Positions 7,509-41,785 of a DNA stretch of 64,000 nucleotides are shown here, piece by piece; the first letter of the stretch is position 1; each line of letters starts with the position of its first letter. This DNA comes from Candidatus Saccharimonadota bacterium. Its GTDB lineage: Bacteria > Patescibacteriota > Saccharimonadia > Saccharimonadales > JACDBH01. The stretch lies in the NCBI GenBank assembly GCA_028289135.1, contig JAQGGW010000001.1, forward strand, positions 12,018 through 76,017, written 5' to 3'. The translations under genes and the position numbers were made by a program. The notes beneath the pieces were generated by a model. It saw nothing but the letters and a program-made list of their open reading frames with translations, did not search any database and was not told the DNA's origin.

Positions 7509-8225
7509 TTAGATCGGTAATTCCATGCTCCATATCCTGAAAAAATGAAGCCCTTCGCTGATTCGCGGTGCTTCCGGAGCTGCTATCTCAGTTTGTTCGG
7601 TGCCTTCCTGCGGCTTCCCGGAAATTTCAGCATCTTTGGCCGCTTTCTCGGCCAACTTTGCTGCTAGTTCGGCTGCCTTTTGAGCCTCTGCAATTATGAG
7701 TTCGTGGTCGCCTATTCTCTTCCCGGAAGTTTTGCCTTTTATTTCCAGCGGCTCCCATGGGTATGTCACCCAATTCCCAAAATCTGCTGCATGAAGGTCT
7801 GGACGGCGATAAGGGATGTTAGCCTCATAATGTATTACTGCTGTCGTAACTGTGCGAACGCCCCTTTCAAGAAGCAGAAGCTTTGTCTCAGTCATGGCAA
7901 TACCTGTACGCCAGGCGTCTTTAACAAATAGTGCATTAGCACCTGCATTTTCATCCGCAACTTCTCTCATTCTGTCTTCGTCGTCTTGTTCTGGAAGCAC
8001 ACGAGGAAGACCAAGCCCCAAAACGCTGGCCAACATGTTAGCGGTAAATACAGAACTAAATCTAGGGATTGTTAATACTGTATCAAATCTAAAACCATCT
8101 CCTTGTTGCGCTGCATACTTCTCCGCTTCCTCCCCTAGATGAAGAATTGCATCATGAATACTGAAGTAATTCTCGGTGTATTCTATTCTTTGCTTAGTAG
8201 GAACAGCTTCACCAGGTGCGGCCAT
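7509..8225 (-). CDS. Gpt-like phosphoribosyltransferase-fold protein with degenerate PRPP loop (238 aa)
   Basis: Layout parallels E. coli Gpt: TIPRFSSVFTANMLASVLG vs AVSRGGLVPGALLA, and NWVTYPWEP vs TWIEQPWD. The PRPP motif is FVKDAWRTGIAM instead of VIDDLVDTGGT. Confidence 0.5.
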   Translation of the reverse strand: MAAPGEAVPTKQRIEYTENYFSIHDAILHLGEEAEKYAAQQGDGFRFDTVLTIPRFSSVFTANMLASVLGLGLPRVLPEQDDEDRMREVADENAGANALFVKDAWRTGIAMTETKLLLLERGVRTVTTAVIHYEANIPYRRPDLHAADFGNWVTYPWEPLEIKGKTSGKRIGDHELIIAEAQKAAELAAKLAEKAAKDAEISGKPQEGTEQTEIAAPEAPRISEGLHFFRIWSMELPI

Positions 8226-22393: not shown

Positions 22394-22535
22394 AAGTCTT
22401 TGCTCCCGTCGTCCCACTCCTTGGAAGTTTAGGCACATTGATTTAGACCGCTCAGAGACAGTTTTACGCTATTAAATCAACGTGCCTAAACTTCCCGTAA
22501 CATTAACCATGTAGCTGAAAGTCTCGTGAAGCCCC
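22394..22535. ncRNA. long-hairpin element H1, copy 2 of 2
   Basis: Arms 22423-22445 and 22473-22495 pair at 22 of 23 positions. The single A.C becomes G.U on the minus strand. The 27-nt loop is conserved with copy 1. ORF-free region. Confidence 0.5.
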
Positions 22536-22562
22536 CGGATGGGGCTTCACCTTTGGTTTGGA
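22526..22562. other. GC-rich hairpin GTGAAGCCCC/GGGGCTTCAC followed by CTTTGGTTTGG
   Basis: 10-bp perfect stem (22526-22535 / 22541-22550) with a 5-nt loop. The U-rich trailer is on the plus strand only. A third GTGAAGCCC copy lies at 22366-22374. Confidence 0.4.
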
Positions 22563-22570
22563 GTTCTTTG

Positions 22571-22815
22571 TGAGAAATAGGTAGCGAATAAGTGACTAGC
22601 GGCCGGAGCCAAAGACCTTAGGGGATGGCAGGCATCGCCCGCAGCCACGGCTAAGACTCGCCAAAGCTACAACAAAATCCAGCCGAGGACTGTTTGACGG
22701 AGCGTTTAGCTCCTAGTTCCGCAGGCTTGTTGTAGGCTTTGGCTGGAGGCTTACCGAGATGTGGGTGGCCTGACGGCGGCTAAGGTCTTTAGCTGAGAAA
22801 GGACGGCTACTTTCC
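22571..22815 (-). ncRNA. rod-shaped structured element R, copy A (homolog of 40244-40490, inverted)
   Basis: Closing helix 22607-22620 / 22781-22794. Apical core 22678-22697 and 22715-22733 is identical to copy B. The 17-nt terminal hairpin covaries. No ORF >=60 aa. Strand is tentative. Confidence 0.55.
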
Positions 22816-39325: not shown

Positions 39326-40210
39326 CTAAAAGCCTTTGAACTCCAATAAGCGTTTTTGCAAACGAATGTGACGCACTATTAATAAGGTGGCCAAAATAAG
39401 CAGCAACCCGCCGATTACAGAGCTTATCGTTACCGCAGTACCTTGGTTTAAGCGCGCCCACCGGGTAAGCGGCGACAAAGCGCCTTCAGGGTTTTGTACT
39501 GTTATGGTTGTAGCTTCGTTGATGGTTGTGCCGTTGGTCCGTGAAATTTGCATGGCAATTTGGTGGCTGCCGTTGCTGAGCAGTGTGGTGTCGAGCATGT
39601 AGCTTTTTGTGGTTGGGATTGGCTTGCCGTCGGCTGAATAGACAACTTTTAAAACTGCCTCTTCGTTTTGGCTGATGGTTGGGCTTGGAATAATGAGACC
39701 GCTTACGGGACCTGTACTTGGCGATGGAATTTGGGTCGCGCCGCTTATGTCTACGGCGCTTGCGGCTACGCTGTCGGACTGGCAGTTGCTGCCGTCACCT
39801 GCCGGCACGCAGTCGGTTTTTACTAGTAACAGGCGATCTATTTTTACGTCTTTTTCGGTTCCAATAAGCCTAGCCGTGTTTTTGTCAGTGCTGTCGAAAT
39901 TAAAATGGACTTTTGAGCTTAGATCACCGTCCTGGAACGAAACCCACGTCCACTGCCCTGGCGTAATGCTGCTCCCGCCTACTGCAAAACAACTGCCGCC
40001 ATTAATTTCAAGATTGTATTGGTTATGCTCAGTGTCTGGGGTTTGCATACGCGTCCATAGGTTATAGATGCCGCTGCTTGGAAGCGTTGGGATTCTAACC
40101 GTAACAGCGCCAAAGCTGGAGACGTTTTCGCAGGCAGCAATTGCGCGGCTATGGCTTGATGCCACCATAATTAGACTCAGAATCCCTAAGAAAAACGCGC
40201 GCTTCTTCAT
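39326..40210 (-). CDS. secreted protein with C-terminal TM anchor (294 aa), unknown function
   Basis: Signal peptide MKKRAFFLGILSLIMVASSHSRAIA. C-terminal span VIGGLLLILATLLIV followed by basic residues. No SD before the ATG. Confidence 0.6.
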   Translation of the reverse strand: MKKRAFFLGILSLIMVASSHSRAIAACENVSSFGAVTVRIPTLPSSGIYNLWTRMQTPDTEHNQYNLEINGGSCFAVGGSSITPGQWTWVSFQDGDLSSKVHFNFDSTDKNTARLIGTEKDVKIDRLLLVKTDCVPAGDGSNCQSDSVAASAVDISGATQIPSPSTGPVSGLIIPSPTISQNEEAVLKVVYSADGKPIPTTKSYMLDTTLLSNGSHQIAMQISRTNGTTINEATTITVQNPEGALSPLTRWARLNQGTAVTISSVIGGLLLILATLLIVRHIRLQKRLLEFKGF

Positions 40211-40243
40211 GCTTGTGTTTAATTATAACATCTTGGCCCAGTA

Positions 40244-40490
40244 CTGAAGTCTCCCTTTCTTAGCTAAACCCCTTCCATCCTGGCATGCCGCACCCACCTT
40301 TAGGTAAGCTCCCGGTCAAGAGACACAACAAGCCTGCGGAACTTGATGCTATACGCATCTTCAAACAGTCCTCGGCTGGAATTTGTTGTGTCCTTGACGG
40401 AGCTTAGCCTCAAAAAGTGTGTGAGCATGCCAGGCTGTAAGGTGTTTAGCTTGCGGACGCTTAACACTTTTTTGCTACTCATTTCTCATA
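40244..40490 (+). ncRNA. rod-shaped structured element R, copy B (inverted relative to copy A)
   Basis: Closing helix 40262-40274 / 40439-40451. Apical core 40325-40343 and 40361-40380 is identical to the reverse complement of copy A. Terminator-like GTGTTTAGC-N8-GCTTAACAC-TTTTTT at 40442-40473 on the plus strand. Strand is tentative. Confidence 0.55.
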
Positions 40491-40518
40491 ATACTTTAGA
40501 AACACACATATCGTACGG

Positions 40519-40669
40519 AGGACTATTCCCCCAATACTCTCAAAGGTACTAAAGAACCCTGAGAGGAGCCGGGAAATGGCAGATGAGACCAGGCTATTTT
40601 ATATATAGGCTCATCTGCCATTTCACCGCGCGTGAACGGTACCTTTGAGAGTATTGGGGGAATAGTCCT
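40519..40669. repeat. 150-nt near-perfect palindromic element (MITE-like or structured RNA)
   Basis: Perfect 30-bp outer arms at 40520-40549 / 40639-40668. Perfect 15-bp inner arms at 40573-40587 / 40610-40624. AT-rich apex. Confidence 0.6.
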
Positions 40670-40699: not shown

Positions 40700-41785
40700 T
40701 TAAGCTTCGATGGTGGAGTTGGCGTAGGCGTCAATGAAAGGGTCTAGGCCACCTGCCAGTACGCCTTCGGTGTCGCTGGTTTCGTGGAGGGTGCGGAGGT
40801 CTTTGACCATTTTATAGGGGTGTAGAACATAGCTGCGGATTTGGTTGCCCCATTCAGCGGATTGGTTGACGCCTTTAAGGTCAGCGAGTTTTTCGAGGTG
40901 CTGTTCCATTTGGAGCTGCACTAAGCGGGAGCGAATGATCGTCATGGCGGTTTCGCGGTTTTGGAGCTGTGAGCGTTCGTTTTGGATGGCTACGGTTATG
41001 CCGGTTGGGACATGGGTAATACGAACGGCGGAATCTGTTGTGTTAACGCTTTGCCCGCCTTTGCCGCCGCTTCTATATACATCGATCTTGAGGTCTTTTT
41101 CGTCAATTTCTAGCGCATCCGGCTGATCAATTTTAGGTACCACTTCGACTTTGGCAAATGATGTTTGTCGGAGGCTGTCGGAATTGAATGGACTTAATCT
41201 GACGAGACGGTGGACACCATGCTCCCCTTTTAATTTGCCGTACGCCAGAGGTCCGTCGATTTCCATGGTTACACTTTTTAGTCCCGCTTCTTCGCCTGCC
41301 GACTCGGCAATGGTTGTGACTGTAAAACCGTGAGCTTCGGCCCATCGTACATACATGCGTAGCAGCATTTGCGCCCAATCTTGGGCGTCAGTGCCGCCAG
41401 CACCGGCGTAAATACTCATAATGACGTTGCCTTCGTCGTGCGGTTGGTTGTAGCGGAGTTCGCCTTTGAGCGCGTCGAACTTTTTGCTGAGGTTTTCTAG
41501 CTGCTGCTCAAGTTCTTTTTGCATTGAAGCGTCATTAAGTTCCGCAAGTTCTTTTAAATATGTAGCTTCGGTTATAAGTTCTTGCCAGGGGTCAATCCTG
41601 GATTTTAGTGCAGATTGTTCCTTCATAATCCCGCCAGCTTTTTGTGTGTCTTGCCAAAAATCTGGATTTGTTGTTTGGTCAGCAAGAGTCTTTAGTTGAG
41701 TTTCAAGTTCGGCAAGTTTAATCCGCTCGCAGGCATCAAAAATAACCTGAGCCTGCTCGTTAATCTGTTTTTGTAATGGTTCCAT
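40700..41785 (-). CDS. prfB: peptide chain release factor 2 (single uninterrupted ORF)
   Basis: SPF tripeptide (RLSPFNS) and GGQ (SGGKGGQSVN). 361 aa with an intact N-terminus, so no +1 frameshift site. Confidence 0.95.
   Translation of the reverse strand: MEPLQKQINEQAQVIFDACERIKLAELETQLKTLADQTTNPDFWQDTQKAGGIMKEQSALKSRIDPWQELITEATYLKELAELNDASMQKELEQQLENLSKKFDALKGELRYNQPHDEGNVIMSIYAGAGGTDAQDWAQMLLRMYVRWAEAHGFTVTTIAESAGEEAGLKSVTMEIDGPLAYGKLKGEHGVHRLVRLSPFNSDSLRQTSFAKVEVVPKIDQPDALEIDEKDLKIDVYRSGGKGGQSVNTTDSAVRITHVPTGITVAIQNERSQLQNRETAMTIIRSRLVQLQMEQHLEKLADLKGVNQSAEWGNQIRSYVLHPYKMVKDLRTLHETSDTEGVLAGGLDPFIDAYANSTIEA

Follow-up and report, generated by a model that had tools for sequence, protein, structure and literature searches.

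Copy B, an imperfect rod of 190 nt in the spacer downstream of prfB, belongs to a family of structured repeats that recurs in many copies per genome and across phyla, and we lean towards reading it as a single insertion of a non-autonomous, interspersed, hairpin-forming repeat that is a passenger at this locus. The first-pass annotation of the 64-kb window (the whole stretch of DNA analyzed here) had described a non-coding rod, inverted relative to a copy A, whose closing helix shares a strand with a small hairpin, and had read the latter as either the terminator of a stand-alone RNA or part of a riboswitch-like arrangement. The rod, its inversion and the hairpin overlap stand; the terminator and the riboswitch are not supported.

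Fold and parts of copy B

The rod folds at -102 kcal/mol on the plus strand and -109.2 kcal/mol on the minus strand, with z = -7.3 on either strand and none of 200 shuffles folding as well, and it is far beyond chance. Its inversion relative to copy A is borne out (72% identity by BLAST), as are the 489-nt gap, which runs from the prfB stop (40700) to the start of a 294-aa gene (40210), and every coordinate that had been given for the closing strand, the hairpin and the T-run of copy B (Table 1). A covariance-model (CM) scan of the window recovers both copies, one on each strand, and no third one within the 64 kb, the next match reaching only 9.1 bits. Read on the minus strand, the apex core of copy B is GCCGAGGACUGUUUGA-(AGAUGC GUAUA GCAUCA)-AGUUCCGCAGGC, for which the core pairs given by RNAalifold are GCC/GGC and GGACU/AG(U)UCC.

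Two short open reading frames within the copy, 40300-40482 (minus) and 40343-40552 (plus), had been taken as probably not coding, and they are indeed not genes: a Pfam search of the two gives no match and the frames are lost in copy A, where no ORF of at least 60 aa overlaps the element, the start codon is gone and the alignment with copy B shows frame-disrupting indels. The lengths of the apical hairpin across the family are also not multiples of 3.

Table 1. Positions of copy B, its parts and related features in the window
Feature	Positions	Strand	Remarks
Copy B rod, closing helix to closing helix	40262-40451	- (weakly favoured family 'sense' strand, putative)	folds; CM 52.9 bits
Apex core, invariant	40332-40376	-	same core in at least 119 genome and 28 metagenome loci
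Apical hairpin, variable	40345-40359	-	GATGC-TATAC-GCATC on plus strand; length and sequence lineage-specific, pairing constant
Closing helix, left arm	40262-40274		AGCTAAACCCCTT on plus strand
Closing helix, right (3') arm	40439-40451		AAGGTGTTTAGCT on plus strand
Hairpin (9/8/9, stem with one U.U) and T6	40442-40473	+	weak, not conserved
Flank common to copies A and B only	40465-40491		CACTT.TT.GCTAC..ATTTCTCA.AA on plus strand; missing from L122 and other homologs
Copy A, inverted homolog	22568-22802	+	apex core 22682-22726; CM 51.1 bits
TATAAT, -10 box of the 294-aa gene	40222-40227	-	11 nt before ATG 40210; downstream of copy B, outside the element

A family of rods with a common apex

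The apex GCCGAGGACUGUYUGA-(variable hairpin)-AGUUCCGCAGGC recurs at the loci counted in Table 1, which span about a dozen phyla and include Saccharibacteria, Parcubacteria, Proteobacteria, Spirochaetes, Nitrospira and Elusimicrobia, and many of the carriers hold 6 to 12 or more copies per genome. On the strand that is minus at copy B the tip motif reads GCC-GA-GGAC-UGUYU-GA-(variable hairpin)-NA-G-U-UCC-GCA-GGC and is asymmetric and almost invariant, an apparent invariance that is in part imposed because the homolog search pattern demanded the exact apex; diverged copies found with the covariance model show apex variation. The apical hairpin differs from lineage to lineage yet pairs in every case. 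In the rod, 89% of cells are paired, as against 36-47% with the partners slid, and double changes occur in 23 of 36 pairs, a level that none of 500 shuffles matches; the secondary structure of the rod is conserved and covaries strongly above both the slid and the shuffled controls.

The family appears to be uncatalogued. Rfam 15 gives no match anywhere in the window with cmscan at the gathering threshold, only miRNA-like noise at E up to 10 between 39900 and 40900, and, on 18 homolog loci, nothing that falls on the element; the families covered include 6S, SRP, the HEARO/IscB and TnpB omega RNAs and the known ribozymes and riboswitches. ARAGORN likewise finds nothing. A search of the open-access literature on the core sequences and concepts returned no relevant paper, which argues weakly for an undescribed family. 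There are no apex matches in viral contigs, INPHARED phages or E. coli genomes, so that a phage or enterobacterial element can be discounted. A metagenome pattern specific to the lineage of copies A and B also had no matches. Several carriers are cultured (Thauera, Niveibacterium, Halopseudomonas, Neiella and, with a short-apex variant, Ralstonia solanacearum), which makes experiments feasible. Ralstonia, Pasteurella and the loci L030, L040 and L072 have inverted dimers whose end modules face outward, and it is only in dimers that the end modules are paired in inverted form.

Gene context and turnover at the locus

The family lacks a common gene context. The 150 neighbouring ORFs match 173 Pfam families, each found in at most three ORFs, and neither clustering of the neighbour proteins nor the Pfam scan of these ORFs yields a recurrent neighbour family. 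Transposases, reverse transcriptases and integrases are not enriched among the 150 ORFs, and Y1_Tnp is absent from the 25 most frequent Pfam families of these neighbours (windows of up to 8 kb). The elements are intergenic, lying between convergent (23), tandem (28) or divergent (8) genes, with an orientation relative to the neighbouring genes that is close to random. A riboswitch requires a constant gene context; thus, the random orientation and the lack of a recurrent Pfam neighbour leave the element without a regulated gene. Across the family one encounters neither a constant orientation upstream of coherent genes, as in riboswitches and leaders, nor a conserved expression platform in the form of a terminator overlapping P1. 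At copy B itself, as had been noted, no plus-strand gene follows.

The gene order secA-M16-prfB-294aa-ftsE-ftsX is kept in relatives with an 84-92% identical prfB, and in these relatives the element is missing from the site downstream of prfB, the spacer there being only 105 and 145 nt in two relatives. The 92% relative, L122, has a decayed copy-A-like element elsewhere, between ftsX and a CHAP gene. A Logan contig with this prfB stops about 60 nt beyond the gene, and the same proteins, sought in other assemblies, lie only on short contigs that break at repeats. The prfB-downstream spacer of relatives was also seen to accumulate other palindromes.

Between copy B and the ATG of the 294-aa gene sits a TATAAT (40227->40222), which is kept as TATAAT in L122, L124 and L125 and as TATACT in L126/L127. 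The possibility, raised in the first-pass annotation, that copy B is a minus-strand 5' UTR of 39326-40210 is excluded because this conserved box separates the element from the ATG. A sigma-70 promoter scan of both strands of copies A and B called none, and a conserved promoter for the family was found on neither strand. A TATTAT box (40493->40488, minus) and a motif common to the two copies, TGAGAAAT..GTAGC, were rejected as promoters because they are lost in L122 and other homologs. TATAA-like boxes lie about 30 nt upstream of copies A and B in the orientation that is plus at copy B.

No transposase, terminal inverted repeats or target-site duplication was identified for the element, and comparison of copy boundaries within Parcubacteria and Spirochaetes genomes showed no clear target-site duplication; it is therefore only the distribution of the copies that suggests mobility.

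The terminal hairpin, the strand and the pseudoknot module

The 3' strand of the closing helix of copy B doubles, as claimed, as the 5' arm of a hairpin, with 9 nt shared: the arms GTGTTTAGC (40442-40450) and GCTTAACAC (40459-40467) enclose a loop of 8 nt, and TTTTTT (40468-40473) follows. This hairpin is only marginal (-10.7 kcal/mol, z = -1.73, 14 of 200 shuffles folding as well), its stem is A/U-rich and broken by a U.U mismatch, and the terminator scan of copy B does not report it (40442-40467). Its counterpart in copy A is degenerate, as had been remarked, folding like shuffles (z = -0.58) and having no T-run, and the segment is wholly deleted in the copy-A-like element of L122. The overlap of P1 and hairpin is seen in copy B only; one homolog clade has instead a separate GC stem linked via ATCCATGG. 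A crude scan shows 10 of 34 homologs, in one clade, to bear at this end and on this strand a hairpin that leads into an A/T-rich tail. The plus-strand minimum-free-energy (MFE) structure of copy B retains P1, not the small hairpin. The plus-strand hairpin with its T-tract is probably a lineage-specific end feature, not an expression platform. Given its marginal z, the silent scan and the degenerate or deleted segment in homologs, a rho-independent terminator ending a stand-alone RNA of about 230 nt is unsupported, and so is a riboswitch-like switch between P1 and the terminator, the overlap not being conserved and the element being multi-copy and devoid of gene context.

Plus-strand transcription had been suggested for copy B; the asymmetry across the family weakly favours the minus strand. 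The orientation that is minus at copy B folds better in 82 of 107 homologs, and the mismatches of the de-duplicated family run 56:31 for G.U versus A.C and 51:22 for A.G versus C.U. The Saccharibacteria-type subfamily has no such wobble asymmetry (G.U 52 vs A.C 46), and the single wobble in the closing helix of copy A is, as claimed, a G.U in the plus-at-B orientation. Candidate tandem G.A pairs flank the apical hairpin on the minus-at-B strand only. The RNA model would place the transcript on the GCCGAGGACUG strand.

Most homologs carry, to judge from their sequences, a pseudoknot with a probable triple helix, a module that is absent altogether from copies A and B of the window. The complementarity of its loop to the upstream segment has a mean of 5.09 as against 4.59 when shuffled (none of 500 shuffled means being as high), and of the informative cases, 10 have a U-tract that mirrors the Watson-Crick pyrimidine arm and one a direct repeat. 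This mirror-versus-direct test was used in place of a run-length test of parallel versus antiparallel triplex pairing, which ended in a tie (11:10:13). The 10:1 proportion fits a parallel U.A-U / C+.G-C triplex, which would be possible on the minus-at-B strand only, and the C position of the putative triplex covaries in homologs. Covarying loop pairing and a mirrored third strand, the marks of a pseudoknot with a triple helix, are thus both found, in homologs only. In Pasteurella and Ilyobacter, the pseudoknot module occurs without the rod.

Alternative explanations

The insertion of a passenger repeat, towards which the balance of the evidence tips, accounts for the number of loci, the many copies per genome and the spread across phyla; for an invariant apex around an apical hairpin that varies and still pairs, on a rod that covaries; for intergenic sites in near-random orientation with no gene context and no Rfam family; and for turnover, with relatives lacking the element here and L122 holding a decayed copy at another site. 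Better folding and the purine-rich mismatches would place its functional strand on the minus strand at copy B. The arms of such a rod may drift and yet remain complementary, with the tip almost invariant, and the rod would then be retained solely for presenting the apex. Folded as a single strand, be it RNA or ssDNA, it could display the apex to a factor acting in trans on which the spread or upkeep of the element would depend; in the minus-strand reading of copy B, the apex is a candidate kink-turn or loop-E-type protein-binding site. Copy B would have landed in the stretch that separates prfB from the promoter of the gene after it, at a site best read as an insertion hot spot; if it is transcribed, prfB read-through on the minus strand would be the likeliest route. 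Against the passenger repeat speak the lack of an identified transposase, terminal inverted repeats and target-site duplication, the lack of a conserved promoter on either strand and the exact-apex search, which partly imposes the invariance; as to its strand, the balanced wobbles of the subfamily and the copy A wobble on the other strand run counter. Moreover, the conservation of the apex across phyla could also be the mark of an RNA that benefits its host, instead of a selfish repeat. An alternative, possible but clearly the less probable, would make the family a structured RNA that functions in trans and is made from the minus strand at copy B, either as paralogous RNA genes or as a SINE-like retro-mobile RNA, with an architecture that might tentatively be drawn as a 5' hairpin, the rod, a kink-turn-like protein-binding apex and, mostly, a 3' pseudoknot triplex protecting the 3' end. 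The family-wide strand asymmetry, the one-stranded G.A candidates and the pseudoknot complementarity with its mirrored U-tracts are in keeping with it, as is an A/T-rich, often TATAAT-like stretch that one clade has just upstream of the 5' GC hairpin; the failure to find a conserved promoter or terminator, the random orientation versus genes, the decayed copies, the missing pseudoknot module in copies A and B and the lack of wobble asymmetry in their closest subfamily are not.

The tolerance of G.U and A.C alike in that subfamily, together with the random orientation, would also suit an element that acts as DNA with no RNA involved, as a cruciform or ssDNA fold whose apex would serve a recombinase, HUH nuclease, gyrase or replication protein as its site. 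The inverted dimers with outward end modules resemble REPIN doublets, and conserved asymmetric bulges are also typical of attC or IS200/IS605 ends. We nevertheless regard this as unlikely, since the purine-rich mismatch asymmetry and the mirror-repeat triplex indicate one functional strand, no enzyme gene was found beside any of about 150 copies, and the apex is unlike the attC R-box or dif consensus, as judged by eye from the sequence. Slightly more doubtful still is the reading of copy B as a plus-strand RNA of about 230 nt that stands alone and ends at an intrinsic terminator at 40442-40473: the hairpin and the T6 are there, TATAA-like boxes lie upstream of both copies, in one homolog clade the corresponding end and strand bear a covarying GC hairpin that runs into an A/T-rich tail, and the closing-helix wobble of copy A is a G.U on this strand, but the hairpin is weak and uncalled, its counterpart is shuffle-like in copy A and deleted in L122, homolog tails often start with A's and can be read equally as -10 boxes on the opposite strand, the family asymmetry prefers that other strand, and no sigma-70-type promoter is called. 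A riboswitch with mutually exclusive P1 and terminator, or a minus-strand 5' UTR controlling 39326-40210, could draw on the 9 nt shared by hairpin and closing helix and on the minus-strand position of the element ahead of the 294-aa gene. This reading is already contradicted by the comparative data and highly improbable: no plus-strand gene follows, the overlap is not conserved, the plus-strand MFE structure retains P1 instead of the hairpin, the element is multi-copy without gene context, and relatives keep the 294-aa gene without the element at the locus, while the conserved -10 box of that gene, 11 nt before its ATG, lies beyond the element.

Integron attC and dif/Xer sites, hammerhead and HDV-like ribozymes, SRP domain IV, the sarcin-ricin loop, box C/D and type I toxin-antitoxin systems were rejected as leads, since none of them fitted when the sequence was compared by eye with their consensus.

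Comparison with known systems

Intrinsic terminators and riboswitch platforms share with copy B a hairpin that is followed by a T6 and overlaps an upstream helix; they differ from it in that the stem here is A/U-rich with a U.U mismatch, uncalled and not conserved, and has no downstream gene. The apex has some likeness to a kink-turn: in the minus-strand reading it has a C-stem GGAC/G(U)UCC, a bulge, and candidate G.A/A.G pairs by the variable stem, with C-G at -1b/-1n. The G and A on the bulged strand and the A at 1n are conserved at 90% or more. The apex is unlike a kink-turn in its bulge of 5 nt rather than 3 and in its 2n position, which varies between G, A and U (A in copy B, U in copy A). 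We know of no binding protein for this kink-turn-like apex.

The end module of the homologs can be likened to H-type triplex pseudoknots, such as those of telomerase RNA, SAM-II and preQ1-II, and functionally to ENE/MALAT1, in having a U-rich loop 1 before an A-U-rich stem, a stem loop that would pair upstream and, in most homologs, a U-tract that mirrors the pyrimidine arm; it differs in its place at a repeat end, outside any riboswitch or telomerase RNA, and in being deduced from sequence. Provided that the triplex pseudoknot is genuine and works at the RNA level, it would stabilize bacterial RNA 3' ends in an uncommon way; to our knowledge, bacterial 3'-end triplex caps have not been described. 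With rod, kink-turn-like tip and 3'-terminal triplex pseudoknot taken together, the cross-phylum structured RNA might itself, with a modest likelihood, be the mobile or functional unit. It could conceivably be the bacterial counterpart of a stable RNP RNA, or of an RNA that is SINE-like or viroid-like, spreading among Saccharibacteria, Parcubacteria, Proteobacteria, Spirochaetes and others via a conserved host factor. A model of the family would strip many false 'sRNA', 'riboswitch' and 'small ORF' calls from MAGs and account for assembly breaks.

A parallel can be drawn with REP/REPIN elements, which are mobilized by RAYT, a Y1 HUH transposase. They, too, are non-coding and occur in many intergenic copies, with an enrichment at gene 3' ends, differences between relatives and compensatory changes that keep their hairpins; the rod family, like them, has multi-copy compensated hairpins in the form of singlets and inverted doublets. 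REP elements, however, are species- or genus-specific units of about 20-40 nt with a GTAG-type motif, whereas the rods measure 110-250 nt, share an asymmetric cross-phylum apex of about 45 nt and, in windows of up to 8 kb, showed no RAYT-like gene beside any copy. ERIC/IRU, Correia (CREE) elements and MITEs are similar as imperfect palindromes that measure 100-250 bp, the centre being conserved in the case of ERIC, and as transcribed intergenic DNA of variable presence whose effect is chiefly on the processing or stability of RNA. The ERIC and Correia families each stay within a single bacterial family or genus, while the rod family conserves its tip and not its ends, and what defines a MITE is its terminal inverted repeats and target-site duplication, neither of which is demonstrated for the rods. 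Interspersed palindromic repeats of the REP, ERIC and Correia type are normally lineage-specific. In the rod family, a tip of about 45 nt is common to CPR and other phyla, and this points therefore to a widely conserved partner or to frequent movement across phyla.

A dispersed family of rod-shaped elements

Copy B, the rod-shaped element in the spacer downstream of prfB, matches the window sequence exactly at the coordinates assigned to it in the first-pass annotation, and its description there as an inverted copy of copy A holds: BLAST aligns the two in opposite orientation at 72% identity, with identical apices and with stem differences that compensate each other. A covariance model of the apex, i.e., the rod tip with two near-invariant blocks around a variable apical hairpin, finds these as the sole copies in the 64 kb. 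Folding of both strands, a check proposed earlier, gave minimum free energies of -102 and -109.2 kcal/mol for the copy B rod, far more stable than shuffled sequences (z = -7.3 each). The two short ORFs over copy B, already judged probably non-coding, lack any Pfam match, and copy A does not preserve them.

Genomes, one per species, were scanned with the pattern GCCTGCGGAAC-N(12-42)-CAGTCCTCGGC, whose blocks were chosen as identical between copies A and B; this recovered at least 119 loci, about three of the matches being due to chance (inside ORFs and without the flanking signature), and a second, subfamily-specific scan of metagenomes added 28. Carriers among the matches listed include Saccharibacteria, Parcubacteria, Uhrbacteria, Gracilibacteria, Burkholderiales, Rhodocyclaceae (Thauera, Niveibacterium and Uliginosibacterium), several Gammaproteobacteria (with Halopseudomonas, Neiella, Oleiphilaceae and Cellvibrionaceae), Epsilon- and Deltaproteobacteria, Myxococcota, Spirochaetes, Nitrospira, Elusimicrobia, Omnitrophica and Bacteroidia. 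Many genomes hold multiple copies, with at least 12 in one Parcubacteria MAG and at least six each in one spirochaete and one betaproteobacterium. An apical hairpin lies between the two apex blocks in every case, its length and sequence differing by lineage. Neither 2.9 million viral contigs nor the INPHARED phages and E. coli genomes yielded a family match. In Rfam 15 nothing matches the window copies or any of 18 homolog loci, leaving the family uncatalogued there, and a search of the open-access literature with the core sequences found no paper describing it.

When 29 distinct Saccharibacteria-type members were aligned on a curated structure, 89% of the cells were paired as against 36–47% with the 3' partners slid by 1–3 columns; both sides had changed in 23 of 36 rod pairs, compensatory cells numbered 119 (22–55 in the slid controls), and none of 500 shuffles reached the observed pairing values. 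The rod is thus under selection for pairing. In the RNAalifold structure, GCC/GGC and GGACU/AG(U)UCC form the apex core, surrounded by unpaired nucleotides that are conserved; these pairs are invariant among the pattern-found copies, and since that invariance is partly imposed by the search pattern they speak neither for nor against structure. Copies found by the covariance model rather than the pattern vary in the core, e.g., the decayed copy GCCGAAGCTGT...AGTTCTGCAGGC in L122 (L-numbers denote homolog loci or contigs from other genomes or metagenomes).

Many proteobacterial homologs (e.g., L075, L114, L090 and L044) carry CGAGUARCGCAGGG as a direct repeat on both rod arms, so that the two copies lie opposite one another in a symmetric internal loop. 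The apex has a similar sequence in its 3' half (CGAGUUCCGCAGGC), and three copies in one element may point to a binding site that is repeated. At one genomic site seen in different samples (L130/L148 versus L141), clearly different variants share the upstream flank and differ in apical hairpins and rod sequences, a pattern more suggestive of gene conversion or replacement among copies than of simple divergence.

A predicted pseudoknot/triplex module in homologs

On the strand reading GCCGAGGACUG...GUUCCGCAGGC (hereafter rev; minus at copy B, plus at copy A), about half of the matches listed in genomes and nearly all subfamily members carry a further module 3' of the rod, e.g., UGCCC-UUUUCUUUGG-UUACUUUCUUUUG-GGCAAG-CAAAAGAAAGUAA. 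Its hairpin loop can pair with the stretch immediately 5' of the U-tract, and this pairing covaries (GGCAG/CUGCC, GGUGG/CCAUC, UCGG/CCGA, UGCC/GGCA), with a mean loop complementarity of 5.09 versus 4.59 in shuffles, none of 500 shuffled means being as high; an H-type pseudoknot is predicted from this. Of the informative cases, 10 show the U-tract as a mirror image of the Watson-Crick pyrimidine arm and one shows a direct repeat, and an interrupting C shifts in step (e.g., UCUUU/UUUCU, UUCUUUU/UUUUCUU, UUUUCUUU/UUUCUUUU). Such mirroring is what a putative parallel U.A-U / C+.G-C major-groove triplex would require; an earlier run-length test on the triplex was uninformative either way. In copies A and B the rod is instead lengthened by a AGCUAAAC/GUUUAGCU helix, and a search of the window for the module found none.

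The module is found apart from the long-apex rod as well. In Ralstonia solanacearum it accompanies a shorter apex (CUGUYUGAG-CGAAG-CGAGUU) in an inverted dimer whose modules point outward; on the megaplasmid (L158, 220-270 and 600-650) this dimer, with the short apex CUGUCUGAGCGAAGCGAGUU, lies between cobalamin-pathway genes, and Variovorax has the module with the same short apex. In Ilyobacter polytropus (L128, 1500-1555) its companion is an apex-like motif, degenerate and on the opposite strand, and in Pasteurella multocida (L129, 1130-1175 and 1490-1545) two inverted modules surround an unrelated palindrome. The module is thus combinatorial, and the modules appear to recombine.

The prfB locus and its relatives

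Coordinates of the features around copies A and B
Feature	Position	Strand	Remarks
Copy B rod	40262-40451		
Closing helix, left arm	40262-40274		AGCTAAAC(C)CCTT; pairs with 40439-40451
Closing helix, right arm	40439-40451		AAGG(T)GTTTAGCT
Small hairpin	40442-40450 and 40459-40467		arms GTGTTTAGC and GCTTAACAC; 8-nt loop
T-tract	40468-40473		TTTTTT
prfB	40700-41785	minus	PCRF and RF-1 domains
294-aa ORF	39326-40210	minus	no Pfam match
-10 box, 294-aa gene	40227->40222	minus	TATAAT; 11 nt before ATG at 40210
151-nt palindrome	40519-40669		outer arms 31 nt, 100% complementary (AGGACTATTCCCCCAATACTCTCAAAGGTAC)
Inner arms of the same	40568-40587 and 40610-40629		20 nt, 90% complementary
Copy A	22568-22802		
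GC-rich hairpin	22526-22550	plus	GTGAAGCCCC-CGGAT-GGGGCTTCAC, then CTTTGGTTTG
~72-nt repeats	~22423-22496 and ~340-410	minus	apex 22455-22470 and 368-383

Copy B lies within the 489-nt spacer between prfB and the 294-aa ORF, with ftsE and ftsX next. Many bacterial prfB genes carry a +1 programmed frameshift; it appears to be absent here, a single unbroken 361-aa ORF spanning both release-factor domains. The order secA-M16 peptidase-prfB-294aa-ftsE-ftsX is kept in contigs with prfB 84–92% identical, where the spacer measures 424 nt (L122), 344 nt (L126/L127), 145 nt (L124) and 105 nt (L125); none of these spacers contains the rod element. L122 has a mutated copy-A-like rod elsewhere, between ftsX and a CHAP-domain gene, in the same block order as around copy A (72-nt palindrome, GC terminator-like hairpin, rod). 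Taken together, these comparisons indicate that the presence and position of the element change between close relatives.

The prfB-294aa spacer gathers other palindromes. That of 151 nt, directly after the prfB stop, is distinct from copy B, and BLAST found no further copy of it in the window; a Logan contig with this prfB stops approximately 60 nt past the gene, where the palindrome probably broke the assembly. A second repeat family, of ~72-nt palindromes, follows the same plan, with arms that vary and a tip that is conserved (AGCGTAAAACTGTCTC; ACCGCT..GAGACAGTTTTACGCT across it); one member adjoins copy A, and in relatives others fill the prfB spacer (L122, also in its ftsX spacer, and L126, with two copies). 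Between copy A and its neighbouring 72-nt palindrome lies the GC-rich terminator-like hairpin, in plus orientation although both flanking genes are on the minus strand; its counterpart in L122 lies at ~7690-7715, in the three-part block downstream of ftsX in this 92% relative. The block may have moved or been inherited as a unit.

Repeat, RNA or regulator

A modestly probable reading of the family is as a non-autonomous interspersed structured repeat with the conserved tip as a putative functional recognition site, copy B being a passenger that would have inserted into a spacer tolerant of such insertions; the rating is no higher since both the partner and the mechanism of mobility are inferences. 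Across the family, convergent genes flank the element in 23 cases, tandem genes in 28 and divergent genes in 8, and in tandem contexts the subfamily is co-directional in 8 and anti-directional in 10, a pattern that suits an interspersed repeat tolerated at gene ends and is at odds with a cis-regulator. When ORFs within 2.5 kb were clustered all against all, only housekeeping families and spurious element-spanning ORFs emerged; in the 150 nearest ORFs a Pfam scan detected 173 families, each in at most three ORFs, and the 25 most frequent include no transposase, integrase or reverse transcriptase.

The main rival, that the family is a functional or retro-mobile RNA from the rev strand, is possible though doubtful. 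The rev strand folds better in 82 of 107 homologs (mean advantage 7.5 kcal/mol; Wilcoxon p = 9e-10), and isolated mismatches in arm-against-arm alignments, de-duplicated to 74 clusters, favour on it G.U over A.C (56 vs 31, p ~0.01) and A.G over C.U (51 vs 22, p ~0.001). Tandem G.A candidates beside the apical hairpin occur on rev only, where the apex resembles a kink-turn (C-stem GGAC/G(U)UCC, 5-nt bulge, GA opposite NA). In the Saccharibacteria-type subfamily the wobble is symmetric (G.U to A.C 52:46 in the curated alignment, 29:30 in arm alignments) and the A.G excess stays (24:6). At copy B the family evidence thus leans weakly towards the minus strand, and the active molecule may be RNA or single-stranded DNA; a purely DNA-level role is unlikely. 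The first-pass annotation had considered plus-strand transcription at copy B, against which this asymmetry weakly points; the only wobble in the copy A closing helix is G.U on the strand opposite rev, as noted then.

A stand-alone plus-strand small RNA ending at the hairpin and T-tract seems improbable at copy B. The hairpin is marginal (-10.7 kcal/mol, z = -1.73, 14 of 200 shuffles equally stable) and was not called in a terminator scan; copy A has, as reported earlier, only a degenerate version (z = -0.58, no T-run). The feature has counterparts by position in homologs: at the same element end, one clade (L031, L102, L130-L135, L144-L146, L149 and others) has a covarying GC hairpin (e.g., GCCCGC/GCGGGC, GCGCC/GGCGC, AGCC/GGCT), joined to the rod via ATCCATGG and followed by an A/T-rich tail on the strand equivalent to copy B plus, and in a crude terminator scan 10 of the 34 members score. 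Three points weaken the terminator reading: this hairpin does not overlap the closing helix, many tails start with A's and are equally readable as TATAAT-like -10 boxes on the opposite strand, and hairpin and tail are absent from other clades, copy A and L122, where the segment is deleted. Since the overlap is not shared by homologs, a mutually exclusive closing helix (P1) and terminator would be peculiar to copy B, not a family trait. A -10 box (TATAAT; TATACT in L126/L127) directly upstream of the 294-aa ATG in all these relatives places the promoter beyond the element, and copy B is therefore not the 5' UTR of that gene; with the box so close to the ATG, the mRNA would have almost no leader or none at all. 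Effectively, this excludes the 5'-UTR reading, and the riboswitch reading is excluded likewise. All these readings overlap, and their probabilities are not meant to total one.

The terminator or riboswitch idea itself rates low, and it is the family behind copy B that merits follow-up. In kind it is a bacterial interspersed palindromic repeat, an already known category, within which it is unusual in its asymmetric apex conserved across phyla, its presence in CPR genomes and the predicted pseudoknot/triplex module of most members.
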